A stretch of 6,147 nucleotides of DNA from Escherichia coli O127:H6 str. E2348/69 (GTDB lineage Bacteria > Pseudomonadota > Gammaproteobacteria > Enterobacterales > Enterobacteriaceae): assembly GCF_000026545.1 (NCBI RefSeq), contig NC_011602.1. One strand, given 5' to 3'. A program made the position numbers and the translations under genes. The notes under the pieces are model-generated. The model was not told the origin of the DNA, searched no databases, and worked only from the letters and a program-made list of their open reading frames with translations. Below are positions 1 to 6,147 of this stretch, piece by piece (position 1 is the stretch's first letter; each line of letters begins with the position of its first letter).

Positions 1-140
1 GATATATTTATTTCCAAAATGCTACAGATACATCATCATGAAACGGATCACCGCAAACAGGTTACTCGCCTGGGGATTCCCTTTCGACCCGAGCATCCGT
101 ATGAGACTCATGCTCGATTATTATTATTATAGAAGCCCCC

Positions 141-956
141 ATGAATAAATCGCTCATCATTTTCGGCATCGTCAACATAACCTCGGACAGTTTCTCCGAT
201 GGAGGCCGGTATCTGGCGCCAGACGCAGCCATTGCGCAGGCGCGTAAGCTGATGGCCGAGGGGGCAGATGTGATCGACCTCGGTCCGGCATCCAGCAATC
301 CCGACGCCGCGCCTGTTTCGTCCGACACAGAAATCGCGCGTATCGCGCCGGTGCTGGACGCGCTCAAGGCAGATGGCATTCCCGTCTCGCTCGACAGTTA
401 TCAACCCGCGACGCAAGCCTATGCCTTGTCGCGTGGTGTGGCCTATCTCAATGATATTCGCGGTTTTCCAGACGCTGCGTTCTATCCGCAATTGGCGAAA
501 TCATCTGCCAAACTCGTCGTTATGCATTCGGTGCAAGACGGGCAGGCAGATCGGCGCGAGGCACCCGCTGGCGACATCATGGATCACATTGCGGCGTTCT
601 TTGACGCGCGCATCGCGGCGCTGACGGGTGCCGGTATCAAACGCAACCGCCTTGTCCTTGATCCCGGCATGGGGTTTTTTCTGGGGGCTGCTCCCGAAAC
701 CTCGCTCTCGGTGCTGGCGCGGTTCGATGAATTGCGGCTGCGCTTCGATTTGCCGGTGCTTCTGTCTGTTTCGCGCAAATCCTTTCTGCGCGCGCTCACA
801 GGCCGTGGTCCGGGGGATGTCGGGGCCGCGACACTCGCTGCAGAGCTTGCCGCCGCCGCAGGTGGAGCTGACTTCATCCGCACACACGAGCCGCGCCCCT
901 TGCGCGACGGGCTGGCGGTATTGGCGGCGCTGAAAGAAACCGCAAGAATTCGTTAA
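141..956 (+). CDS. sul2: Sulfonamide-resistant dihydropteroate synthase Sul2
   Basis: 271-aa ORF, ATG at 141 and TAA at 954-956. The translation (MNKSLIIFGIVNITSDSFSDGG ... LAALKETARIR) matches Sul2 as I recall it over the full length. GC-rich relative to the backbone. Confidence 0.96.
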   Translation: MNKSLIIFGIVNITSDSFSDGGRYLAPDAAIAQARKLMAEGADVIDLGPASSNPDAAPVSSDTEIARIAPVLDALKADGIPVSLDSYQPATQAYALSRGVAYLNDIRGFPDAAFYPQLAKSSAKLVVMHSVQDGQADRREAPAGDIMDHIAAFFDARIAALTGAGIKRNRLVLDPGMGFFLGAAPETSLSVLARFDELRLRFDLPVLLSVSRKSFLRALTGRGPGDVGAATLAAELAAAAGGADFIRTHEPRPLRDGLAVLAALKETARIR

Positions 957-1016
957 CTGCACATTCGGGATATTTCTCTATATTCGCGCTTCATCAGAAA
1001 ACTGAAGGAACCTCCA

Positions 1017-1820
1017 TTGAATCGAACTAATATTTTTTTTGGTGAATCGCATTCTGACTGGTTGCCTGTCAGAGGCGGAGAATCTGGTGATTTTGTTTTT
1101 CGACGTGGTGACGGGCATGCCTTCGCGAAAATCGCACCTGCTTCCCGCCGCGGTGAGCTCGCTGGAGAGCGTGACCGCCTCATTTGGCTCAAAGGTCGAG
1201 GTGTGGCTTGCCCCGAGGTCATCAACTGGCAGGAGGAACAGGAGGGTGCATGCTTGGTGATAACGGCAATTCCGGGAGTACCGGCGGCTGATCTGTCTGG
1301 AGCGGATTTGCTCAAAGCGTGGCCGTCAATGGGGCAGCAACTTGGCGCTGTTCACAGCCTATCGGTTGATCAATGTCCGTTTGAGCGCAGGCTGTCGCGA
1401 ATGTTCGGACGCGCCGTTGATGTGGTGTCCCGCAATGCCGTCAATCCCGACTTCTTACCGGACGAGGACAAGAGTACGCCGCAGCTCGATCTTTTGGCTC
1501 GTGTCGAACGAGAGCTACCGGTGCGGCTCGACCAAGAGCGCACCGATATGGTTGTTTGCCATGGTGATCCCTGCATGCCGAACTTCATGGTGGACCCTAA
1601 AACTCTTCAATGCACGGGTCTGATCGACCTTGGGCGGCTCGGAACAGCAGATCGCTATGCCGATTTGGCACTCATGATTGCTAACGCCGAAGAGAACTGG
1701 GCAGCGCCAGATGAAGCAGAGCGCGCCTTCGCTGTCCTATTCAATGTATTGGGGATCGAAGCCCCCGACCGCGAACGCCTTGCCTTCTATCTGCGATTGG
1801 ACCCTCTGACTTGGGGTTGA
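1017..1820 (+). CDS. strA: Aminoglycoside 3''-phosphotransferase APH(3'')-Ib (streptomycin resistance, StrA)
   Basis: 267-aa ORF with a TTG start at 1017 preceded by GAAGGAAC; translation MNRTNIFFGESHSDWLPVRGG ... matches StrA from memory. Sits 60 bp downstream of sul2, as in the RSF1010-type cluster. Stop TGA at 1818-1820. Confidence 0.95.
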   Translation: MNRTNIFFGESHSDWLPVRGGESGDFVFRRGDGHAFAKIAPASRRGELAGERDRLIWLKGRGVACPEVINWQEEQEGACLVITAIPGVPAADLSGADLLKAWPSMGQQLGAVHSLSVDQCPFERRLSRMFGRAVDVVSRNAVNPDFLPDEDKSTPQLDLLARVERELPVRLDQERTDMVVCHGDPCMPNFMVDPKTLQCTGLIDLGRLGTADRYADLALMIANAEENWAAPDEAERAFAVLFNVLGIEAPDRERLAFYLRLDPLTWG

Positions 1821-2656
1821 TGTTCATGCCGCCTGTTTTTCCTGCTCATTGGCACGTTTCGCAACCTGTTCTCATTGCGGACACCTTTTCCAGCCTCGTT
1901 TGGAAAGTTTCATTGCCAGACGGGACTCCTGCAATCGTCAAGGGATTGAAACCTATAGAAGACATTGCTGATGAACTGCGCGGGGCCGACTATCTGGTAT
2001 GGCGCAATGGGAGGGGAGCAGTCCGGTTGCTCGGTCGTGAGAACAATCTGATGTTGCTCGAATATGCCGGGGAGCGAATGCTCTCTCACATCGTTGCCGA
2101 GCACGGCGACTACCAGGCGACCGAAATTGCAGCGGAACTAATGGCGAAGCTGTATGCCGCATCTGAGGAACCCCTGCCTTCTGCCCTTCTCCCGATCCGG
2201 GATCGCTTTGCAGCTTTGTTTCAGCGGGCGCGCGATGATCAAAACGCAGGTTGTCAAACTGACTACGTCCACGCGGCGATTATAGCCGATCAAATGATGA
2301 GCAATGCCTCGGAACTGCGTGGGCTACATGGCGATCTGCATCATGAAAACATCATGTTCTCCAGTCGCGGCTGGCTGGTGATAGATCCCGTCGGTCTGGT
2401 CGGTGAAGTGGGCTTTGGCGCCGCCAATATGTTCTACGATCCGGCTGACAGAGACGACCTTTGTCTCGATCCTAGACGCATTGCACAGATGGCGGACGCA
2501 TTCTCTCGTGCGCTGGACGTCGATCCGCGTCGCCTGCTCGACCAGGCGTACGCTTATGGGTGCCTTTCCGCAGCTTGGAACGCGGATGGAGAAGAGGAGC
2601 AACGCGATCTAGCTATCGCGGCCGCGATCAAGCAGGTGCGACAGACGTCATACTAG
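1820..2656 (+). CDS. strB: Aminoglycoside 6-phosphotransferase APH(6)-Id (streptomycin resistance, StrB)
   Basis: 278-aa product starting MFMPPVFPAHWHVSQ at ATG 1820, which overlaps the strA stop by 1 bp (TGATG), suggesting translational coupling. The ORF track extends the frame to a TTG at 1811, but the canonical StrB N-terminus supports 1820. Stop TAG at 2654-2656. Confidence 0.94.
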   Translation: MFMPPVFPAHWHVSQPVLIADTFSSLVWKVSLPDGTPAIVKGLKPIEDIADELRGADYLVWRNGRGAVRLLGRENNLMLLEYAGERMLSHIVAEHGDYQATEIAAELMAKLYAASEEPLPSALLPIRDRFAALFQRARDDQNAGCQTDYVHAAIIADQMMSNASELRGLHGDLHHENIMFSSRGWLVIDPVGLVGEVGFGAANMFYDPADRDDLCLDPRRIAQMADAFSRALDVDPRRLLDQAYAYGCLSAAWNADGEEEQRDLAIAAAIKQVRQTSY

Positions 2657-3167
2657 ATATCAAGCGACTTCTCCTATCCCCTGGGAACACATCAATCTCA
2701 CCGGAGAATATCGCTGGCCAAAGCCTTAGCGTAGGATTCCGCCCCTTCCCGCAAACGACCCCAAACAGGAAACGCAGCTGAAACGGGAAGCTCAACACCC
2801 ACTGACGCATGGGTTGTTCAGGCAGTACTTCATCAACCAGCAAGGCGGCACTTTCGGCCATCCGCCGCGCCCCACAGCTCGGGCAGAAACCGCGACGCTT
2901 ACAGCTGAAAGCGACCAGGTGCTCGGCGTGGCAAGACTCGCAGCGAACCCGTAGAAAGCCATGCTCCAGCCGCCCGCATTGGAGAAATTCTTCAAATTCC
3001 CGTTGCACATAGCCCGGCAATTCCTTTCCCTGCTCTGCCATAAGCGCAGCGAATGCCGGGTAATACTCGTCAACGATCTGATAGAGAAGGGTTTGCTCGG
3101 GTCGGTGGCTCTGGTAACGACCAGTATCCCGATCCCGGCTGGCCGTCCTGGCCGCCACATGAGGCAT
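2628..3167 (-). mobile_element. IS91-family (ISCR-like) rolling-circle transposase, 5' fragment only (N-terminal zinc-binding domain; catalytic HUH/Tyr domain absent)
   Basis: The minus-strand ORF starts at ATG (complement of 3165-3167) and encodes ...RPEQTLLYQIVDEYYPAF...CGRLEHGFLRVRCESCHAEHLVAFSCKRRGFCPSCGARRMAESAALLVDEVLPEQPMRQWVLSFPFQLR, the conserved N-terminal Cys-rich zinc-binding signature of IS91/ISCR transposases. Only about 540 bp are available where a full gene needs about 1.2-1.5 kb, and the reading frame runs into the 3' end of strB, so the gene is truncated. Assignment to CR2/ISCR2, the usual partner of sul2, is an inference I could not verify. The exact point where homology ends (somewhere between 2657 and about 2800) is unknown. 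Confidence 0.7.
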
Positions 3168-3186
3168 GTTCCGCGTCCTTGCAATA

Positions 3187-3202
3187 CTGTGTTTACATAC
3201 AG
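3187..3202. promoter_or_regulatory. LexA (SOS) box-like palindrome CTGTGTTTACATACAG (CTGT-N8-ACAG)
   Basis: Perfect CTGT-N8-ACAG with an AT-rich spacer, flanked TA...T as in the E. coli consensus TACTGT-N8-ACAGTA. It lies about 20 bp upstream of the transposase-fragment start codon on the minus strand, and about 19 of 21 bases match the second LexA box at 3651-3666. Function unproven. Confidence 0.45.
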
Positions 3203-3210
3203 TCTATCGC

Positions 3211-3600
3211 TTAGCGGAAAGTTCTTTTACCCTCAGCCGAAATGCCTGCCGTTGCTAGACATTGCCAGCCAGTGCCCGTCACTCCCACTCTTACATTGTT
3301 CGCAGTATCTAGGTACATGTTATTGCGTGCACCTTCATGATGTATAATGTTATTAATGACAGCAGAAAGATCGACAGAATTAATATTCTTCGTACCTGGG
3401 ACAGTTATCGGGTGTCGGCCAGTGATGAGACCAAAGGATGCAGTATAAGATGAACCACTACTATTATCATGGCCACCATTACCACCACCGTTAAAACTAC
3501 CTCCCGAACTTCCAGAGCCGCTATGACCATCATTGTAGGGGTCATTTGGTCCCATGTGACCAAAACCACCGACAGTACCGCTATTTAACTCTGTACTCAT
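3211..3600 (-). CDS. Glycine/serine-rich 129-aa protein of unknown function; colicin-like disordered N-terminus; SOS-box promoter
   Basis: ATG at complement of 3598-3600 with a strong RBS AGAGGA (3608-3613) 7 nt upstream. Product MSTELNSGTVGGFGHMGPNDPYNDGHSGSGSSGGSFNGGGNGGHDNSSGSS... followed by about 70 less biased residues. The ORF track starts the frame 11 codons upstream (3633), but the RBS supports 3600. The coding call is supported mainly by the RBS and promoter architecture; the product class is not established. Confidence 0.55.
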   Translation of the reverse strand: MSTELNSGTVGGFGHMGPNDPYNDGHSGSGSSGGSFNGGGNGGHDNSSGSSYTASFGLITGRHPITVPGTKNINSVDLSAVINNIIHHEGARNNMYLDTANNVRVGVTGTGWQCLATAGISAEGKRTFR

Positions 3601-3636
3601 AAAATTATCCTCTTTGACTTTTAAAAACAGCAAAAA

Positions 3637-3666
3637 CTGTATTTATAACAATGTGTTTATATACAG
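3637..3666 (-). promoter_or_regulatory. Tandem overlapping LexA boxes (colicin-type SOS operator)
   Basis: The plus strand reads CTGTATTTATAACAATGTGTTTATATACAG: box 1 at 3637-3652 (CTGT-N8-CAAT, degenerate inner half) and box 2 at 3651-3666 (ATGT-N8-ACAG), overlapping by 2 bp. This resembles the overlapping dual SOS boxes of colicin operons and sits between a candidate -10 and the RBS of the glycine-rich ORF. Confidence 0.65.
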
Positions 3667-3674
3667 TATTCGAA

Positions 3675-3704
3675 ATACTACGCCCGTCAAAACCACACCG
3701 TCAA
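3675..3704 (-). promoter_or_regulatory. Candidate sigma70 promoter for the glycine-rich ORF
   Basis: On the minus strand: -35 TTGACG (3699-3704), 18-bp spacer, -10 TAGTAT (3675-3680), immediately upstream of the LexA boxes. An alternative -35 TTGACG at 3685-3690 with -10 TACTGT would overlap box 2. Sequence-based only. Confidence 0.4.
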
Positions 3705-3817
3705 CAGGTTTTTTGTGTATTTTTCACGCCTCACGGGCAGCCTCAGACCTTTTGTGTTAAAACAGTAATATGTTCTGCTGTTACAATACGGTACACACAG
3801 GAGACACTGTCACTTTT

Positions 3818-4258
3818 ATGGCATGGCACACAGTTCAAGAGACACTGAAATTAACAGGAAAGTCGCGCTCGCAATTATATCGTGACATGGCTAAAGGCCT
3901 TGTCAGCTATCGCACAGGAAAAAATGATCGCCGGGAGTTCGAGACCAGTGAACTGATTCGGGCCTATGGCGAGCTGCGCACTTCTGAGACACCAAAAAGG
4001 CACAAGGAGGGACACTCCAAATCTGTCGTTAGCCAGGCGGAAAATGCTCAGCTAGACGTCATTCAGCAGAAACTGGACGCTCTGCAGCAGACTGTTACCC
4101 TAATGCTTGAAGACAAGATGGCGCGGGAAGCAGAAAACCGCCTGCGAAATGAGGAGAGGGAACAACTACAGGCCGAAATTAGCCGTCTGGCTGACGCGCT
4201 GGCACAGGAAAAAAAGCGGGGATTCTGGTCGCGGCTGTTTCGCTCCGGTTCAGAGTAA
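3818..4258 (+). CDS. Putative helix-turn-helix DNA-binding protein with C-terminal coiled coil (146 aa; function unknown)
   Basis: ORF with stop TAA at 4256-4258. The preferred start is ATG 3818 (MAWHTVQETLKLTGKSRSQLYRDMAKGLV...), preceded by AGGAG at 3799-3803 (14-nt spacing, longer than ideal) and an extended -10 TGtTACAAT at 3778-3787. An alternative in-frame ATG at 3770 gives 162 aa. The N-terminus looks like an AlpA/excisionase/MerR-like HTH; the C-terminal roughly 70 aa are heptad-like and rich in charged residues and Gln/Leu (...LDALQQTVTLMLEDKMAREAENRLRNEEREQLQAEISRLADALAQEKK) with a basic amphipathic tail. Confidence 0.55.
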   Translation: MAWHTVQETLKLTGKSRSQLYRDMAKGLVSYRTGKNDRREFETSELIRAYGELRTSETPKRHKEGHSKSVVSQAENAQLDVIQQKLDALQQTVTLMLEDKMAREAENRLRNEEREQLQAEISRLADALAQEKKRGFWSRLFRSGSE

Positions 4259-4852
4259 CAGTGCAGGTGACTCTGATTTACCATAACATCTGTTATCAGC
4301 ACCGCCTGAGAGGCCCTCAGGGCGTTTCTGACGGGAAACCGGTAAAACAGGCAACAAACCACCCGAAAACCCGCCAGAAACGCGCAGGCTCTGTTTTTAC
4401 GGCATGCATGAGTATGCGCACAAGTGCATAGCGCGGAAATTCACACCATTCAGCCGGGGTAAGTCCTGTTTCCGGCGTTCTTCCCATCCGAAAACGGTGA
4501 ACGGGGACGCAATTTATTGCGTGGCCGTGAAGCGTTGCCGGCGCAGCCGGAAAACCCGCTGTCAGCACGTTCAGGAAGGGGGTGATGTACAAATGGCACA
4601 GAGGATGAAAGTGACGTATGAGCTGAAGGAGCGATGTAATTCTGTAGTCAGGAAGAATAACCCGTTCATGCAGGCATGAACGATACAGTGAGGAACGCTT
4701 TTTTTGTCACGATCTCCCCTTAACCTGCGTAAATCACCCGCCATGGTTGATTATTTTTCAACCTCAAAATGGTCATACACCTAACGCAGCCGCGATTTTC
4801 ATCGCAACTGCATGAATTAAAAGAAAAAAAAGGAATATTTCGTTTTCACGAG

Positions 4853-4926
4853 TAATACCCGGGTATTAAAAATCCACTGTAATTACATGAAAATAAAGAA
4901 ATAAAAGGTAATACCGGAGTATTACC
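4853..4926. repeat. Cluster of related palindromes: TAATAC-N4-GTATTA twice, plus TGTAATTACA
   Basis: P1 at 4853-4868 is TAATACCCGGGTATTA, a perfect 16-bp palindrome. P2 at 4907-4926 is GGTAATACCGGAGTATTACC, 8-bp arms around CGGA. Both share half-sites TAATAC / GTATTA separated by 4 bp, with centres about 56 bp apart. P3 at 4878-4887 is TGTAATTACA, a perfect 10-bp palindrome in the AT-rich spacer. On the minus strand P2 is followed by TTTTATTTCTTTATTT and so may also act as an intrinsic terminator for the 4950-5099 ORF. Confidence 0.5.
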
Positions 4927-4949
4927 ACGTACGCGGGCAAGCGAAAAAG

Positions 4950-5099
4950 CTATAACGCTTCCCGGCCGACAGGCGACCCAAAATCCACAGGGGCATGCAG
5001 GTTCTCTTCAGTAACCTGCGCCATTAAATCAAAAAGGTCATATTCGCCGGGAAGCTGCGTATCAGTCGAATCCAGTTGTTCATCATATTCAGATGGCAT
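4950..5099 (-). CDS. Hypothetical small acidic protein (49 aa), next to bom/oriT
   Basis: Hand-translated minus-strand ORF, absent from the ORF track (probably below its length cutoff): MPSEYDEQLDSTDTQLPGEYDLFDLMAQVTEENLHAPVDFGSPVGREAL. ATG at complement of 5097-5099, stop at 4950-4952. No clear Shine-Dalgarno. The terminator-like hairpin P2 with a T-run lies 23 nt downstream. Coding status is uncertain. Confidence 0.25.
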   Translation of the reverse strand: MPSEYDEQLDSTDTQLPGEYDLFDLMAQVTEENLHAPVDFGSPVGREAL

Positions 5100-5125
5100 G
5101 GGGTGATATCCAGTAGCTGAGAGGT

Positions 5126-5200
5126 TGTTAGCGGGTTTCGGGGCGCAGCCCTGAACCAGTCATGTAGCGCTAGCGGAGTGTATACTGGCTTACTATGTTG
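5126..5200 (+). other. ColE1-type bom/oriT (basis of mobility) site
   Basis: ...CGGGGCGCAGCCCTGAACCAGTCATGTAGCGCTAGCGGAGTGTATACTGGCTTACTATG closely resembles the pBR322/ColE1 bom region as recalled (GGGGCGCAGCCATGACCCAGTCACGTAGCGATAGCGGAGTGTATACTGGCTTAACTATG). The nick is expected near the conserved TATACTGGCTTA motif (5181-5192). No cognate mob/mbe relaxase gene is present in the window. Confidence 0.6.
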
Positions 5201-5399
5201 CCACGATTGCGAAAATCAGTGAAGTGCTTCATGTGGCAGGAGAAAAAAGGCAGCACCGGCGCGTCAGCAGAATATGCGATACAGGAGATATTCCGCTTCC
5301 TCGCTCACTGACTCGCTACGCTCGGTCGTTCGGCTGCGGCGAGCGGTACCGGCTTACGGACGGGGACGGAAATTTCCTGGAAGATACCAGGAAGACACT

Positions 5400-5470
5400 T
5401 AGCAAAGAAGAGATAAGGCCACGGCGAAGCCGTTTTTCCATAGGCTCCGCCCCCCTGACAAGCATCGCAA
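5400..5470 (-). other. ColE1/p15A-type origin of replication (RNA-DNA transition region)
   Basis: AAGCCGTTTTTCCATAGGCTCCGCCCCCCTGACAAGCATC matches the conserved ori core of p15A/pMB1 replicons as recalled. It lies about 520-550 nt downstream of the inferred RNA II start, on the minus strand. Leading-strand replication is inferred to proceed leftward. Confidence 0.6.
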
Positions 5471-5955
5471 AATCTGACGCTCAAATCAGTGGTGGCGAAA
5501 CCCGACAGGACTATAAAGATCCCAGGCGTTTCCCCCTGGTAGCTCCCTCGTGCGCTCTCCTGTTCCTGCCTTTCGGTTTACCGGTGTCATTCCGCTGTTA
5601 TGGCCGCGGTTTCTCATTCCACGCCTGACACTCAGTTCCGTGAAGGCAGTTCGCTCCAAGCTGGACTGTATGCACGAACCCCCCGTTCAGTCCGACCGCT
5701 GCGCCTTGTCCGGTAACTATCAACTTGAGTCCAACCCGGAAAGACACGACAAAACGCCACTGGCAGCAGCCATTAGTAACAGGAGTGCACGAGAAGATAG
5801 ATTAAGAGGTCTTGAAGTAGAGGCCTGACTGCGGCTACACTGAAAGAACAGTTTTGGTAATGGCGGTCTCGTGAACCCTGTTACCGGGTTAAGCAGTTCC
5901 CCAACTGACTTAACCTTCGAACAAACCGCCTCCCCAGGCGGTTTTTTCGTTTACA
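5432..5955 (-). ncRNA. RNA II pre-primer transcript (approximate extent)
   Basis: Minus-strand promoter with -35 TTGAGA (complement of 5986-5991), 17-bp spacer, -10 TAATCT (complement of 5963-5968). The transcribed region is collinear with the p15A RNA II region as recalled, with many substitutions. Ends are approximate. Confidence 0.6.
5848..5947 (+). ncRNA. RNA I antisense copy-number control RNA (approximate extent)
   Basis: Plus-strand promoter with -35 TTGAAG (5812-5817), 18-bp spacer, -10 TACACT (5836-5841), and a start near ACAGTTTTGG as in ColE1 RNA I. It ends at an intrinsic terminator, CCGCC-TCCCCA-GGCGG plus T7 (5925-5947). It is antisense to the 5' end of RNA II. Confidence 0.6.
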
Positions 5956-6147
5956 GAGCAAGAGATTACGATTCATTGAAAAGGATCTCAAGAAGATCCT
6001 TTGTAGATTACTATCAATTAATCTTCCGAACATGACACCAGTCACTGTTGATTACGGTTAAACCGCTCCGTAACAGGTTTCCCTCGTATTGGTGACTTGC
6101 AGCACCAAAGAAGCAAAAAAGATAAATATATCTACTTATTGAGAGAT

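Follow-up and report, generated by a model that had tools for sequence, protein, structure and literature searches.

The resistance block sul2-strA-strB-IRR-ΔCR2 is an arrangement already known from publications of 2010 and 2012 (Yau et al. 2010; Anantham & Hall 2012), as cited in PMC6807383, PMC4908116 and PMC8148099. According to PMC4908116 and PMC8148099, which summarise Yau et al. (2010), the published origin of this cluster is the entry of Tn5393 into CR2, and PMC6807383 and PMC7407071 describe both the p9123 plasmid family and a 'sul2-strA-strB-ΔISVsa3' configuration. CR2, ISCR2 and ISVsa3 denote the same IS91-family rolling-circle element, in which LexA binds the rcr promoter region with weak SOS induction and the rcr2 promoter is extremely weak even when derepressed (bioRxiv 10.1101/2025.11.21.689736). 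A CR2-sul2 unit is also found in GIsul2, where Int(GIsul2)-dependent excision and integration of the unit between its att cores has been shown experimentally (Zhang et al. 2022, PMC9376610); the attLR core motif lies 112-130 bp upstream of rcr2 (PMC9376610).

The window considered here, that is the whole stretch of 6,147 nt that was analysed, is the complete Escherichia coli plasmid p6148 (NC_011795.1; 100% identity by plasmid sequence comparison), which is of the ColE1-like type and belongs to the p9123/pCERC2 family. It is very probable that the region 2628-3300, taken as a whole, contains no active element and is best explained as three recombination junctions, all fossil, stacked in a ColE1-like plasmid of the p9123/pCERC2 type. 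The question of how this region is built was settled through plasmid comparisons. An empty-site plasmid of 4068 bp (L001; L001-type: NZ_CP096196), a S. Choleraesuis plasmid of 6066 bp (L006) and Tn5393a of pPSR1 (L010, the Tn5393 reference) were used, and RSF1010-derived and large-plasmid copies of the block (L015, L016) were compared instead of the RSF1010 reference NC_001740.

The Tn5393 end and the ISCR2 remnant

The following features (window coordinates) make up the resistance segment and the element adjoining it.

45-984, plus strand: sul2 side of the former CR2-sul2 unit, reaching from 96 bp upstream of sul2 (141-956) to about 30 bp past it; identity with the backbone stops at 44
985-2762, plus strand: Tn5393-derived segment with 99.66% identity to Tn5393a of pPSR1; it contains strA and strB, preceded by 32 bp and followed by the right inverted repeat
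1820-2656, plus strand: strB / aph(6)-Id, complete gene (Pfam APH_6_hur, E = 4.8e-117; RefSeq annotation of p6148)
2628-3167, minus strand: 179-codon open reading frame (ORF) converging on strB (ORF list)
2682-2762, minus strand: right terminal inverted repeat (IRR) of Tn5393, 81 bp; aligns with both Tn5393a arms
2763-3167, minus strand: what remains of rcr2, namely the part coding for residues 1-135 of the ISCR2/ISVsa3 transposase, with the zinc-binding domain alone (Pfam, BLASTP)
2763-3290, minus strand: ΔISCR2 (ΔCR2), the 5' 528 bp of the 1852-bp element; three unrelated contexts share the sequence to 3290
3187-3202, no strand assigned: LexA box CTGTGTTTACATACAG, situated in the promoter region of rcr2 and 20-35 bp upstream of its start codon (pattern scan)
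3268-3286, minus strand: proposed ISCR2 terIS GGGAGTGACGGGCACTGGC; exact match to the sequence in PMC9376610

Positions 985-2762 of the window correspond to 5073-6850 of the Tn5393a reference, with the match stopping exactly at the outer end of the transposon and the left breakpoint falling within a 4-bp CGCG shared with the sul2 flank (985-988). The last 81 bp of this segment (2682-2762) align base for base with both IRL and IRR of Tn5393a in pPSR1, where the two transposon ends (1381-1474 and 6757-6850) are inverted copies of each other and a 5-bp TGAAT duplication flanks them. This stretch is a terminal inverted repeat of the Tn3 family/Tn5393 type, and its outer 38 bp (2725-2762; reverse complement GGGGTCGTTTGCGGGAAGGGGCGGAATCCTACGCTAAG) represent the Tn3-family core GGGG...ACGCTAAG. 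The preliminary description of this DNA, which had held that no Tn3-family (Tn5393-type) terminal repeat follows strB, was wrong on this point. When the whole window was compared with Tn5393a, similarity was found to begin at position 5073 of the reference, past tnpR, and tnpA, tnpR/res and IRL are absent; the only further match is that of the IRR, which aligns inversely with the left inverted repeat. Because the insertion has lost its IRL side, one flank survives.

The 179-codon ORF overlaps the final 29 nt of strB. Its residues 1-135 are identical to the 497-aa ISVsa3 (= ISCR2) transposase (135/135, BLASTP) and diverge thereafter, and Pfam detects Zn_Tnp_IS91, the N-terminal zinc-binding domain of the IS91/ISCR family, at residues 35-126 (E = 2.7e-20). 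In the full-length ISCR2 transposase Y2_Tnp occupies residues 171-393, so that the HUH/Y2 catalytic domain is missing from the window copy, which ends at residue 135. The earlier view of this gene as a truncated IS91-like transposase convergent with strB, which had lost its catalytic part while keeping its 5' end and upstream region, is therefore borne out: the window still has the rcr2 start, preceded by 123 bp of ISCR2 sequence. The accompanying claim that the frame runs into the 3' end of strB is correct for the ORF but not for the transposase. Since the Tn5393 IRR occupies 2682-2762, the transposase-derived part stops at 2763 and not within strB, and codons 136-179 (44 codons, 2631-2762) exist by chance, the frame happening to stay open through the IRR and the strand opposite the 3' end of strB.

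At the DNA level, 2762-3290 is 100% identical to intact ISVsa3 copies. The length and the oriIS end of ISCR2 were taken from L006; this end, ACGTATAGGAAGAATAAACGCC, defined from four contexts, lies downstream of the transposase gene and is absent from the window, in which the ISCR2 sequence starts at 2763, so that oriIS belongs to the deleted part. Having neither an HUH/Y2 catalytic domain nor oriIS, ΔISCR2 is a remnant that is unable to transpose or to function as an insertion sequence. The proposed terIS is located upstream of the transposase gene, GGGAGTGACGGGCACTGGC being the reverse complement of 3268-3286. The LexA box at 3187-3202 is the only exact CTGT-N8-ACAG in the plasmid, and a regulatory role for the remnant is doubtful given the extreme weakness of the rcr2 promoter even when derepressed. 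A scan of 2550-3850 for terminators found none.

The backbone junction and the att core

Two further features mark the boundary between ISCR2 and the plasmid backbone.

3283-3290, minus strand: att core GAGTGGGA (attLR of GIsul2 / the CR2-sul2 unit), the last ISCR2-side sequence before the backbone (PMC9376610 motif; sequence confirmed)
3290/3291, no strand assigned: junction of ISCR2-derived DNA with plasmid backbone (empty-site comparison)

Three unrelated contexts (L008, L009/L002 and the window) agree up to 3290 and then diverge, which identifies the natural end of ISCR2. This agreement led us to reject the proposed terIS (3286), or position 3285 as in floR/lysR contexts, as the general boundary. 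The empty-site plasmid is collinear with 3284-6147 and 1-44 of the window and has 1085 bp in place of the resistance segment; at the junction it has CCCCACTG/TTACATTG, as against TCCCACTC/TTACATTG in the window (junction sequence …CACTCCCACTCTTACATTGTTCGC…). The end of the IS-derived sequence, previously sought within 3168-3400 in order to decide whether the glycine-rich ORF is native or chimeric, is thus found at 3290, and the ORF is chimeric.

The reciprocal junction is found in L014, in which positions 2435-2916 of L001, containing the 3' part of the toxin gene, are joined as CCCCACTG/TATTGTAAAC to a complete 304-bp sul2-side end (junction sequence …CCAATCCCCACTGTATTGTAAACAAG…). L014 is located on a large IncF plasmid next to ISKpn26 and represents a captured fragment, not an intact intermediate. 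Both reciprocal junctions are observed, as are the coordinates and identities. Complete sul2-side ends (L011-L013, L014) reach 304 bp upstream of sul2, the position of the attR end; the window retains 96 bp upstream of sul2, and the outer 208 bp of the CR2-sul2 unit, including attR, are missing from it.

The att core of the window lies 116-123 bp upstream of the rcr2 ATG, within the range described for attLR. The outer 7 bp of the 19-bp att site are backbone sequence and the site is therefore hybrid. The motif CCCACT(C/G) occurs once in L001 (4068 bp, both strands), exactly at the insertion point (L001 2908-2915), and the target site CAGTGGGG matches the att core at six of eight positions; other insertions of the CR2-sul2 unit show CCCACTC at both ends. 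Neither the ORF list nor the RefSeq annotation contains an integrase gene on the plasmid. Since the boundary falls at the core GAGTGGGA, which is the one that the GIsul2 integrase uses, site-specific insertion of a CR2-sul2 unit is favoured over rolling-circle capture; with no integrase gene on the plasmid and a six-of-eight match at the target, we infer the action of an integrase from geometry. We hold with moderate confidence that 3290/3291 and its reciprocal in L014 record a natural integrase-mediated insertion of CR2-sul2 at a secondary att-like site in the bacteriocin gene of a 4-kb ColE1-like plasmid.

It is unlikely, though the idea carries some weight, that 3290/3291 and its partner arose instead with no integrase, the bacteriocin plasmid and a replicon bearing CR2-sul2 having been joined through illegitimate recombination at a microhomology or through replication slippage. 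Only six contiguous bases (CCCACT) are shared, a microhomology that could serve equally; other breakpoints of p6148 lie in tiny homologies, for example CGCG at 985-988, and the plasmid has no integrase gene. However, the two junctions are exactly reciprocal, with no bases lost or gained, and fall at the core that also terminates the unit in at least five other contexts, unrelated to this one; the site is the sole such heptamer in 4068 bp, and integrase-mediated movement of precisely the CR2-sul2 unit has been shown experimentally (PMC9376610).

Under integrase-mediated insertion, a circular CR2-sul2 unit would have integrated into the bacteriocin gene at the backbone's sole CCCACT(C/G) site, most likely by means of a GIsul2-family tyrosine integrase, joining the att-core end of the unit to codon 104 of that gene at 3290/3291. 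A deletion of about 1.3 kb would then have cost the plasmid the attR end, the last 60% of the toxin gene and a convergent gene for a 199-aa protein. Finally, the interior would have been exchanged for a pre-formed Tn5393-containing version, probably by homologous recombination through sul2 and CR2. We infer both the enzyme of integration and the order of deletion and Tn5393-block exchange. L006 has the backbone and both backbone junctions of the window with sul2-ΔglmM-complete ISCR2 between them, and represents a precursor. The incoming block itself derives from a transposition of Tn5393 into CR2. At 2762/2763 the outer tip of the IRR abuts rcr2 codon 135/136 directly, the signature of such an event followed by losses. 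These comprised tnpA, tnpR, IRL, the 3' three-quarters of CR2 with its oriIS and the ΔglmM spacer, yielding the universal block sul2-strA-strB-IRR-ΔCR2. Along with the zinc-finger portion of Rcr2, the 528 bp surviving at 2763-3290 contain terIS, the att core and the weak rcr2 promoter to which LexA binds. The suggestion that an ISCR/CR2-type element acquired sul2-strA-strB, with later deletion, is in part sustained, in that there is a CR2 remnant, CR2 took part in the arrival of sul2 and a deletion followed; strA-strB, by contrast, is a Tn5393 fragment and did not arrive with the ISCR element.

A de novo transposition of Tn5393 into a resident ISCR2 of the L006 type, followed by deletion in situ, appears improbable. 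The block, later found in RSF1010 and elsewhere, would then have been born in the p9123 family, and a precursor does exist in L006, whose backbone junctions are identical and whose ISCR2 is complete. The identical block is nevertheless present with both unit ends complete, including the attR side, on unrelated large plasmids (L016, 99.9% identical over window 42-3290), and the window, having lost 208 bp of the sul2-side end including attR, cannot be the source of these complete-ended copies. The 2762/2763 junction is also common to thousands of records, and the citing papers PMC4908116 and PMC8148099 place the origin in an RSF1010-type context. It is highly improbable that ISCR2/CR2 captured sul2-strA-strB in one piece by rolling-circle (one-ended) transposition, with a later deletion trimming the transposase gene to strB and no Tn5393 end: although the ISCR2 5' end and proposed terIS are intact at the backbone boundary and IS91-family elements are thought to move adjacent DNA, an exact 81-bp Tn5393 IRR separates strB from rcr2, the conserved boundary lies where the att core ends, 4 bp past the proposed terIS, the other end of the CR2-sul2 unit is an att core and not oriIS, one-ended transposition carries DNA beyond terIS while sul2 in the precursor L006 lies beyond the oriIS end, so that an L006-type ISCR2 copy could not carry it, and there is no experimental ISCR2 transposition to date (bioRxiv 10.1101/2025.11.21.689736; PMC9376610 background). 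In the literature searched, which does not extend to the text of two primary papers (Yau 2010; Anantham & Hall 2012), we encountered no statement that the p9123/pCERC family was founded by an integrase.

The truncated putative bacteriocin gene

Beyond the junction the following features are found on the backbone side.

3211-3600, minus strand: glycine-rich ORF of chimeric origin, with an ATG at 3600, a length of 129 codons and the stop codon at 3211-3213 (alignment with the intact 260-aa L001 protein and 12 homologues)
3637-3704, minus strand: promoter of the truncated bacteriocin gene, with -35 TTGACG (3699-3704), -10 TAGTAT (3675-3680) and putative SOS boxes at 3637-3666 (promoter scan)

The native gene contributes codons 1-103 of the chimeric ORF. 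The 26 codons that follow are read from the end of ISCR2, codon 104 having changed from T to R. Downstream of the TTGACG/TAGTAT promoter match lies a putative LexA-like pattern with one mismatch (3651-3666). A putative second SOS box, which overlaps it and which we take to form a colicin-type pair with it (3637-3666 together), was placed by eye against the ColE1 arrangement.

The intact backbone gene is predicted to encode an SOS-regulated bacteriocin of 260 aa that combines a glycine-rich N-terminus like that of colicins with a killing domain of the T4-lysozyme type (GH24). Its product scores 26.3 bits against Pfam Phage_lysozyme (cut-off 22.3) and gives a weak Pesticin-domain match below the cut-off (E = 1e-3), and over the first 24 residues it shares 92% identity with a colicin-like pore-former. 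Equivalents of the T4 lysozyme triad are recognisable in the family alignment, in which E89 and D98 are invariant and T104 is present in at least 90% of rows; a PDB sequence search returned marginal T4-lysozyme matches (best E = 0.027), which were used only to locate the alignment of the catalytic triad. The lysozyme domain, present in the intact homologue, is absent from the window ORF, which is cut at codon 104. Beside the toxin gene in the backbone is a convergent gene for a 199-aa signal-peptide protein, deleted from the window; this gene for a secreted protein is a candidate, presumed immunity gene. NCBIfam contains no family for either the 260-aa or the 199-aa protein, and the bacteriocin has no name in databases. 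A comparison of gene sizes and type of immunity led us to reject identity with colicin Z, which has 237 aa with a 151-aa four-TM protein, as against 260 aa with a 199-aa signal-peptide protein here.

Implications and comparison with known systems

The main value of this analysis is a correction of the 'IS91 family transposase' and 'hypothetical protein' calls that many deposited copies carry at 2628-3167 and 3211-3633: the former is a truncated remnant with read-through and the latter a chimeric leftover, and neither is a functional gene. The breakpoints 44/45, 985-988, 2762/2763 and 3290/3291 provide exact markers with which to track the common resistance block and the plasmid family. The ends of the CR2-sul2 unit behave like integrase att sites and not like IS ends, which supports the spread of ISCR2-associated sul2 by site-specific and homologous recombination and by plasmid mobilisation, rather than by ISCR2 transposition. 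If integrase-mediated insertion is correct, the globally spread p9123/pCERC family would have been founded by site-specific recombination, not ISCR2 transposition. The founding insertion would have destroyed an uncharacterised, putative SOS-regulated lysozyme-type bacteriocin/immunity pair, leaving two putative LexA-controlled promoters (the bacteriocin promoter and P_rcr2) antisense toward strB.

The lysozyme-type bacteriocins (pesticin of Yersinia pestis; colicin Z on the 4-kb pColZ, PMC6668396) resemble the backbone gene in being carried on a small plasmid, in having an SOS-box promoter (putative here) and in their C-terminal peptidoglycan-hydrolase domain; a glycine-rich colicin-like N-terminus and a convergent candidate immunity gene are likewise found for the intact backbone gene. 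Colicin Z immunity is conferred by a 151-aa four-helix membrane protein, in contrast to the 199-aa signal-peptide protein that accompanies the backbone bacteriocin. The 260-aa protein, of whose gene the window keeps the first 103 codons, differs from pesticin in that its Pesticin-domain match is weak.

As in the CR2-sul2 unit of GIsul2, the ISCR2-side end in the window is at the attLR core GAGTGGGA, and the attR end of the unit, 304 bp upstream of sul2, is where the reciprocal junction was recovered in L014. The GIsul2 attB is guaA, whereas here a secondary site in a plasmid gene (CAGTGGGG) was occupied; the window no longer has the attR end, which was deleted later, and a Tn5393 fragment now stands in place of ΔglmM. 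The window is identical to ISCR2 over the first 528 bp of the element, including the rcr2 start, LexA box, terIS and zinc-binding domain. From Tn5393, a Tn3-family transposon for streptomycin resistance, it keeps strA, strB and the complete 81-bp right inverted repeat at 99.7% identity, but the tnpA, tnpR, res and left inverted repeat of that transposon are not represented in the fragment, whose left breakpoint lies 32 bp upstream of strA.

Among the closest relatives, pCERC1 carries a dfrA14 cassette that p6148 lacks, and plasmids such as L003 (6821 bp) have an 11/22-bp tandem array that is likewise missing from p6148; this array may also underlie the 6200-6222-bp size classes. There is otherwise no substantive difference between p6148 and the p9123/pCERC family, and the gene order and both internal junctions of the block sul2-strA-strB-IRR(Tn5393)-ΔCR2 of RSF1010, p9123, pCERC1 and pCERC2 are identical in the window.

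Tn5393 tip and ISCR2 transposase remnant beside strB

The open reading frame at 2628-3167 (- strand), which appears in the ORF list for the window, contains a Zn_Tnp_IS91 domain (E = 2.7e-20), and its residues 1-135 are identical to those of the 497-aa ISVsa3 (ISCR2, CR2) transposase, after which the two are unrelated. The catalytic Y2_Tnp domain, residues 171-393 of the full-length protein, is missing from the window copy. Intact ISVsa3 copies on many plasmids give a 100% DNA match over window 2762-3290. These data bear out the preliminary description of a truncated IS91-like gene that converges on strB and keeps its own start and upstream region.

The same description was wrong in placing no Tn3-family terminal repeat after strB. 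Using as reference the complete Tn5393a from Pseudomonas syringae pPSR1, whose inverted repeat ends (1381-1474 and 6757-6850) are flanked by a 5-bp TGAAT duplication, we aligned Tn5393a 5073-6850 with window 985-2762 at 99.66% identity, the match stopping exactly at the outer tip of the transposon (GGGGTCGTTTGCGGGAAGGGGCGGAATCCTACGCTAAG on the - strand). The left repeat of Tn5393a also aligns, in inverse orientation, with window 2682-2762. On its left side the fragment begins 32 bp upstream of strA, within a 4-bp CGCG common to the sul2 flank (985-988). Since the tip is located at 2762, ISCR2 sequence makes up the ORF only as far as 2763; the further 44 codons, earlier taken as transposase frame running into strB, result from fortuitous translation across the repeat. 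The original observation was real but partly mis-described, and its interpretation right in part. Some public records label the read-through ORF 2628-3167 'IS91 family transposase', which describes a remnant. An exact transposon tip against rcr2 (transposase gene) codon 135/136 is the outcome that would be expected of Tn5393 transposition into CR2. As summarised in PMC4908116 and PMC8148099, Yau et al. 2010 derive strAB and the adjacent IRR (right terminal inverted repeat) from Tn5393 and sul2 from a CR2-containing element, parts of both having been lost in later events.

Features upstream of the transposase remnant
3187-3202: LexA box, exact CTGT-N8-ACAG, the sole exact instance on the plasmid
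3268-3286, reverse complement (GGGAGTGACGGGCACTGGC): proposed terIS, matching the sequence quoted in PMC9376610
3283-3290 (GAGTGGGA): attLR core of GIsul2, as quoted in PMC9376610

LexA binding and weak SOS induction have been shown for the ISCR2 rcr promoter region (2025 preprint, bioRxiv 10.1101/2025.11.21.689736).

The backbone junction and the interrupted putative bacteriocin gene

ISCR2 copies in unrelated surroundings, namely on plasmids of Aeromonas (L008) and of Acinetobacter/Klebsiella (L009, L002), agree with the window to ...GTCACTCCCACTC (3290) and are divergent beyond; a floR/lysR context diverges 5 bp sooner. A 4068-bp Enterobacter plasmid without resistance genes (L001, NZ_CP096196.1) is collinear with window 3284-6147 and 1-44 and reads CCCCACTG/TTACATTG at the site, compared with TCCCACTC/TTACATTG in the window. 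The ISCR2 contexts and this empty site therefore place the junction at 3290/3291. As the IS-derived sequence ends at 3290, the glycine-rich ORF, previously left as either native or chimeric, is chimeric. Its first 103 codons are native; codon 104 is altered from T to R, codons 105-106 are unchanged solely through the shared CCCACT, and translation continues through 23 last codons of ISCR2-end sequence before the stop codon at 3211-3213. RefSeq copies carry this remnant as a 140-aa 'hypothetical protein' with an upstream TTG start (3211-3633; WP_172684459.1).

The intact L001 counterpart is a 260-aa protein, itself unnamed, with a glycine-rich colicin-like N-terminus and a GH24/T4-lysozyme-type domain. 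It matches Phage_lysozyme (26.3 bits vs a threshold of 22.3) and, weakly, Pesticin in Pfam; T4 lysozyme aligns with it across the catalytic region, and over its first 24 residues it shares 92% identity with a pore-forming protein of colicin-like type. Homologues were found to ~41% identity, one being labelled 'GH24 family phage-related lysozyme' by one source. In a 14-row alignment including the truncated ORF of the window, E89 and D98 never vary and at least 90% of rows have T104; on our reading of this alignment these residues would correspond to the Glu11/Asp20/Thr26 triad of T4 lysozyme. Upstream of the glycine-rich ORF a TTGACG/TAGTAT promoter match is followed by overlapping LexA-like boxes. 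The lysozyme domain, colicin-like N-terminus and LexA-like boxes therefore mark the previously noted 'SOS unit' as the decapitated remnant of a small, predicted bacteriocin gene of lysozyme type, analogous to colicin Z but not the same. A convergent 199-aa gene of L001, whose product has an N-terminal signal peptide and which is a candidate immunity gene, is gone from the window save its first 7 bases. Judged from sequence, the two genes resemble a bacteriocin/immunity pair of lysozyme type, hitherto uncharacterised, on a 4-kb plasmid. They occupy L001 1817-3225, the surviving part lying at window 3292-3704; the pair is intact in 4 plasmid records only, although the protein cluster is nonetheless found on many contigs.

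Proposed origin of the resistance block

The S. Choleraesuis plasmid L006 (6066 bp) matches the window in backbone, backbone junctions and chimeric ORF, but contains sul2-ΔglmM-complete ISCR2 (1852 bp, oriIS end toward sul2). Among the records listed of the 243 that match the L001 region, only four keep the intact bacteriocin region, and the backbone-bearing records have L001 1823 and 2909 as common break points, which would point to a single founding event. Elsewhere (L011-L013, L015, L016) the sul2-side unit end lies 304 bp upstream of sul2, always at CCCACTC/TATTGTAAAC; its outer 208 bp are missing from the window. The missing half is present in the 86-kb IncF plasmid L014 of Enterobacter cloacae (CP035637.1; 4001-4500): L001 2435-2916, covering the 3' portion of the bacteriocin gene, runs via the joint CCCCACTG/TATTGTAAAC into the entire sul2-side end, beyond which comes sul2-ΔglmM-ISCR2. 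This piece is a captured fragment of an otherwise unseen intermediate, and the L014 and window junctions are two exactly reciprocal joints with zero bases gained or lost. The CR2-sul2 unit in L014 is complete and adjoins ISKpn26. The CCCACT[C/G] heptamer occurs once in L001, both strands counted, at the insertion point. Excision and integration of the 'CR2-sul2 unit' by the GIsul2 integrase, recorded in recA-deficient cells, take place between these same unit ends (PMC9376610).

From this pattern we infer that the CR2-sul2 unit would have integrated at a secondary att-like site within the toxin gene, that a ~1.3-kb deletion would then have taken 1085 bp of backbone and 208 bp of the unit, and that the interior would finally have been swapped for a pre-formed Tn5393-containing version. 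Such a version with complete ends is found on large plasmids (99.9% identity over window 42-3290), so homologous recombination via sul2 and the CR2 5' part would be the simplest route. We likewise infer the enzyme behind integration and the order of deletion and interior replacement. How the unit integrated has one main competing account, microhomology-mediated illegitimate recombination; the reciprocal junction argues for att-site integration.

Present mobility and relation to known plasmids

Lacking its catalytic domain and oriIS, the ISCR2 remnant cannot move on its own, nor can the Tn5393 fragment, without transposase, resolvase and second end; the resistance block spreads with the plasmid, typed as mobilizable (p6148, MOB-suite), or via homologous recombination. 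The two LexA-box regions, 3187-3202 (ISCR2 remnant) and 3637-3666 (truncated bacteriocin gene), are 450 bp apart. Their associated promoters (P_rcr2, the rcr2 promoter, and the bacteriocin promoter) are potentially active and read toward strB on the opposite strand, and a terminator scan found no terminator-like site between the LexA-box regions and strB. P_rcr2 was measured as extremely weak (bioRxiv 10.1101/2025.11.21.689736), and an antisense effect is speculative.

A whole-window search returned the complete 6148-bp E. coli plasmid p6148 (NC_011795.1) at 100% identity, and ~140 near-identical plasmids of 6.0-8.4 kb from Escherichia, Shigella, Salmonella, Klebsiella and Citrobacter. Among the relatives, the 6821-bp plasmid L003 (NZ_CP091841.1; horse isolate) carries a dfrA1 gene cassette at 2810-3385 (equivalent to window 2656/2657), directly 3' of the strB stop codon (…ACTAG/TTAACC…), a secondary-site insertion. 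In L003, 5362-5446 is taken up by ~7.6 copies of tandemly repeated 11/22-bp units (TGATGTAAAAG / TGATGTATAAG), an array missing from the 6148-bp copy (equivalent window about 4630-4640). Relatives of 6200, 6211 and 6222 bp form size classes spaced 11 bp apart, a pattern suggestive of variation in array copy number. The dfrA1 cassette recalls dfrA14 in strA of pCERC1, although position and cassette both differ.

Plasmids of the p6148 type are assigned to the ColE1-like 'p9123 family', whose resistance region goes by the name 'sul2-strA-strB-ΔISVsa3 configuration', a 'sul2-ISVsa3' form being its predicted precursor (PMC6807383); pCERC2 and pSCU-120-3 name the same plasmid type in PMC7407071. Our finding therefore concerns a much-studied object. 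The sul2-strA-strB-IRR-ΔCR2 structure is already known, and our additions are small: we place the junction exactly at 3290/3291, show the glycine-rich ORF to be chimeric, identify the backbone gene that was destroyed and report the reciprocal junction.
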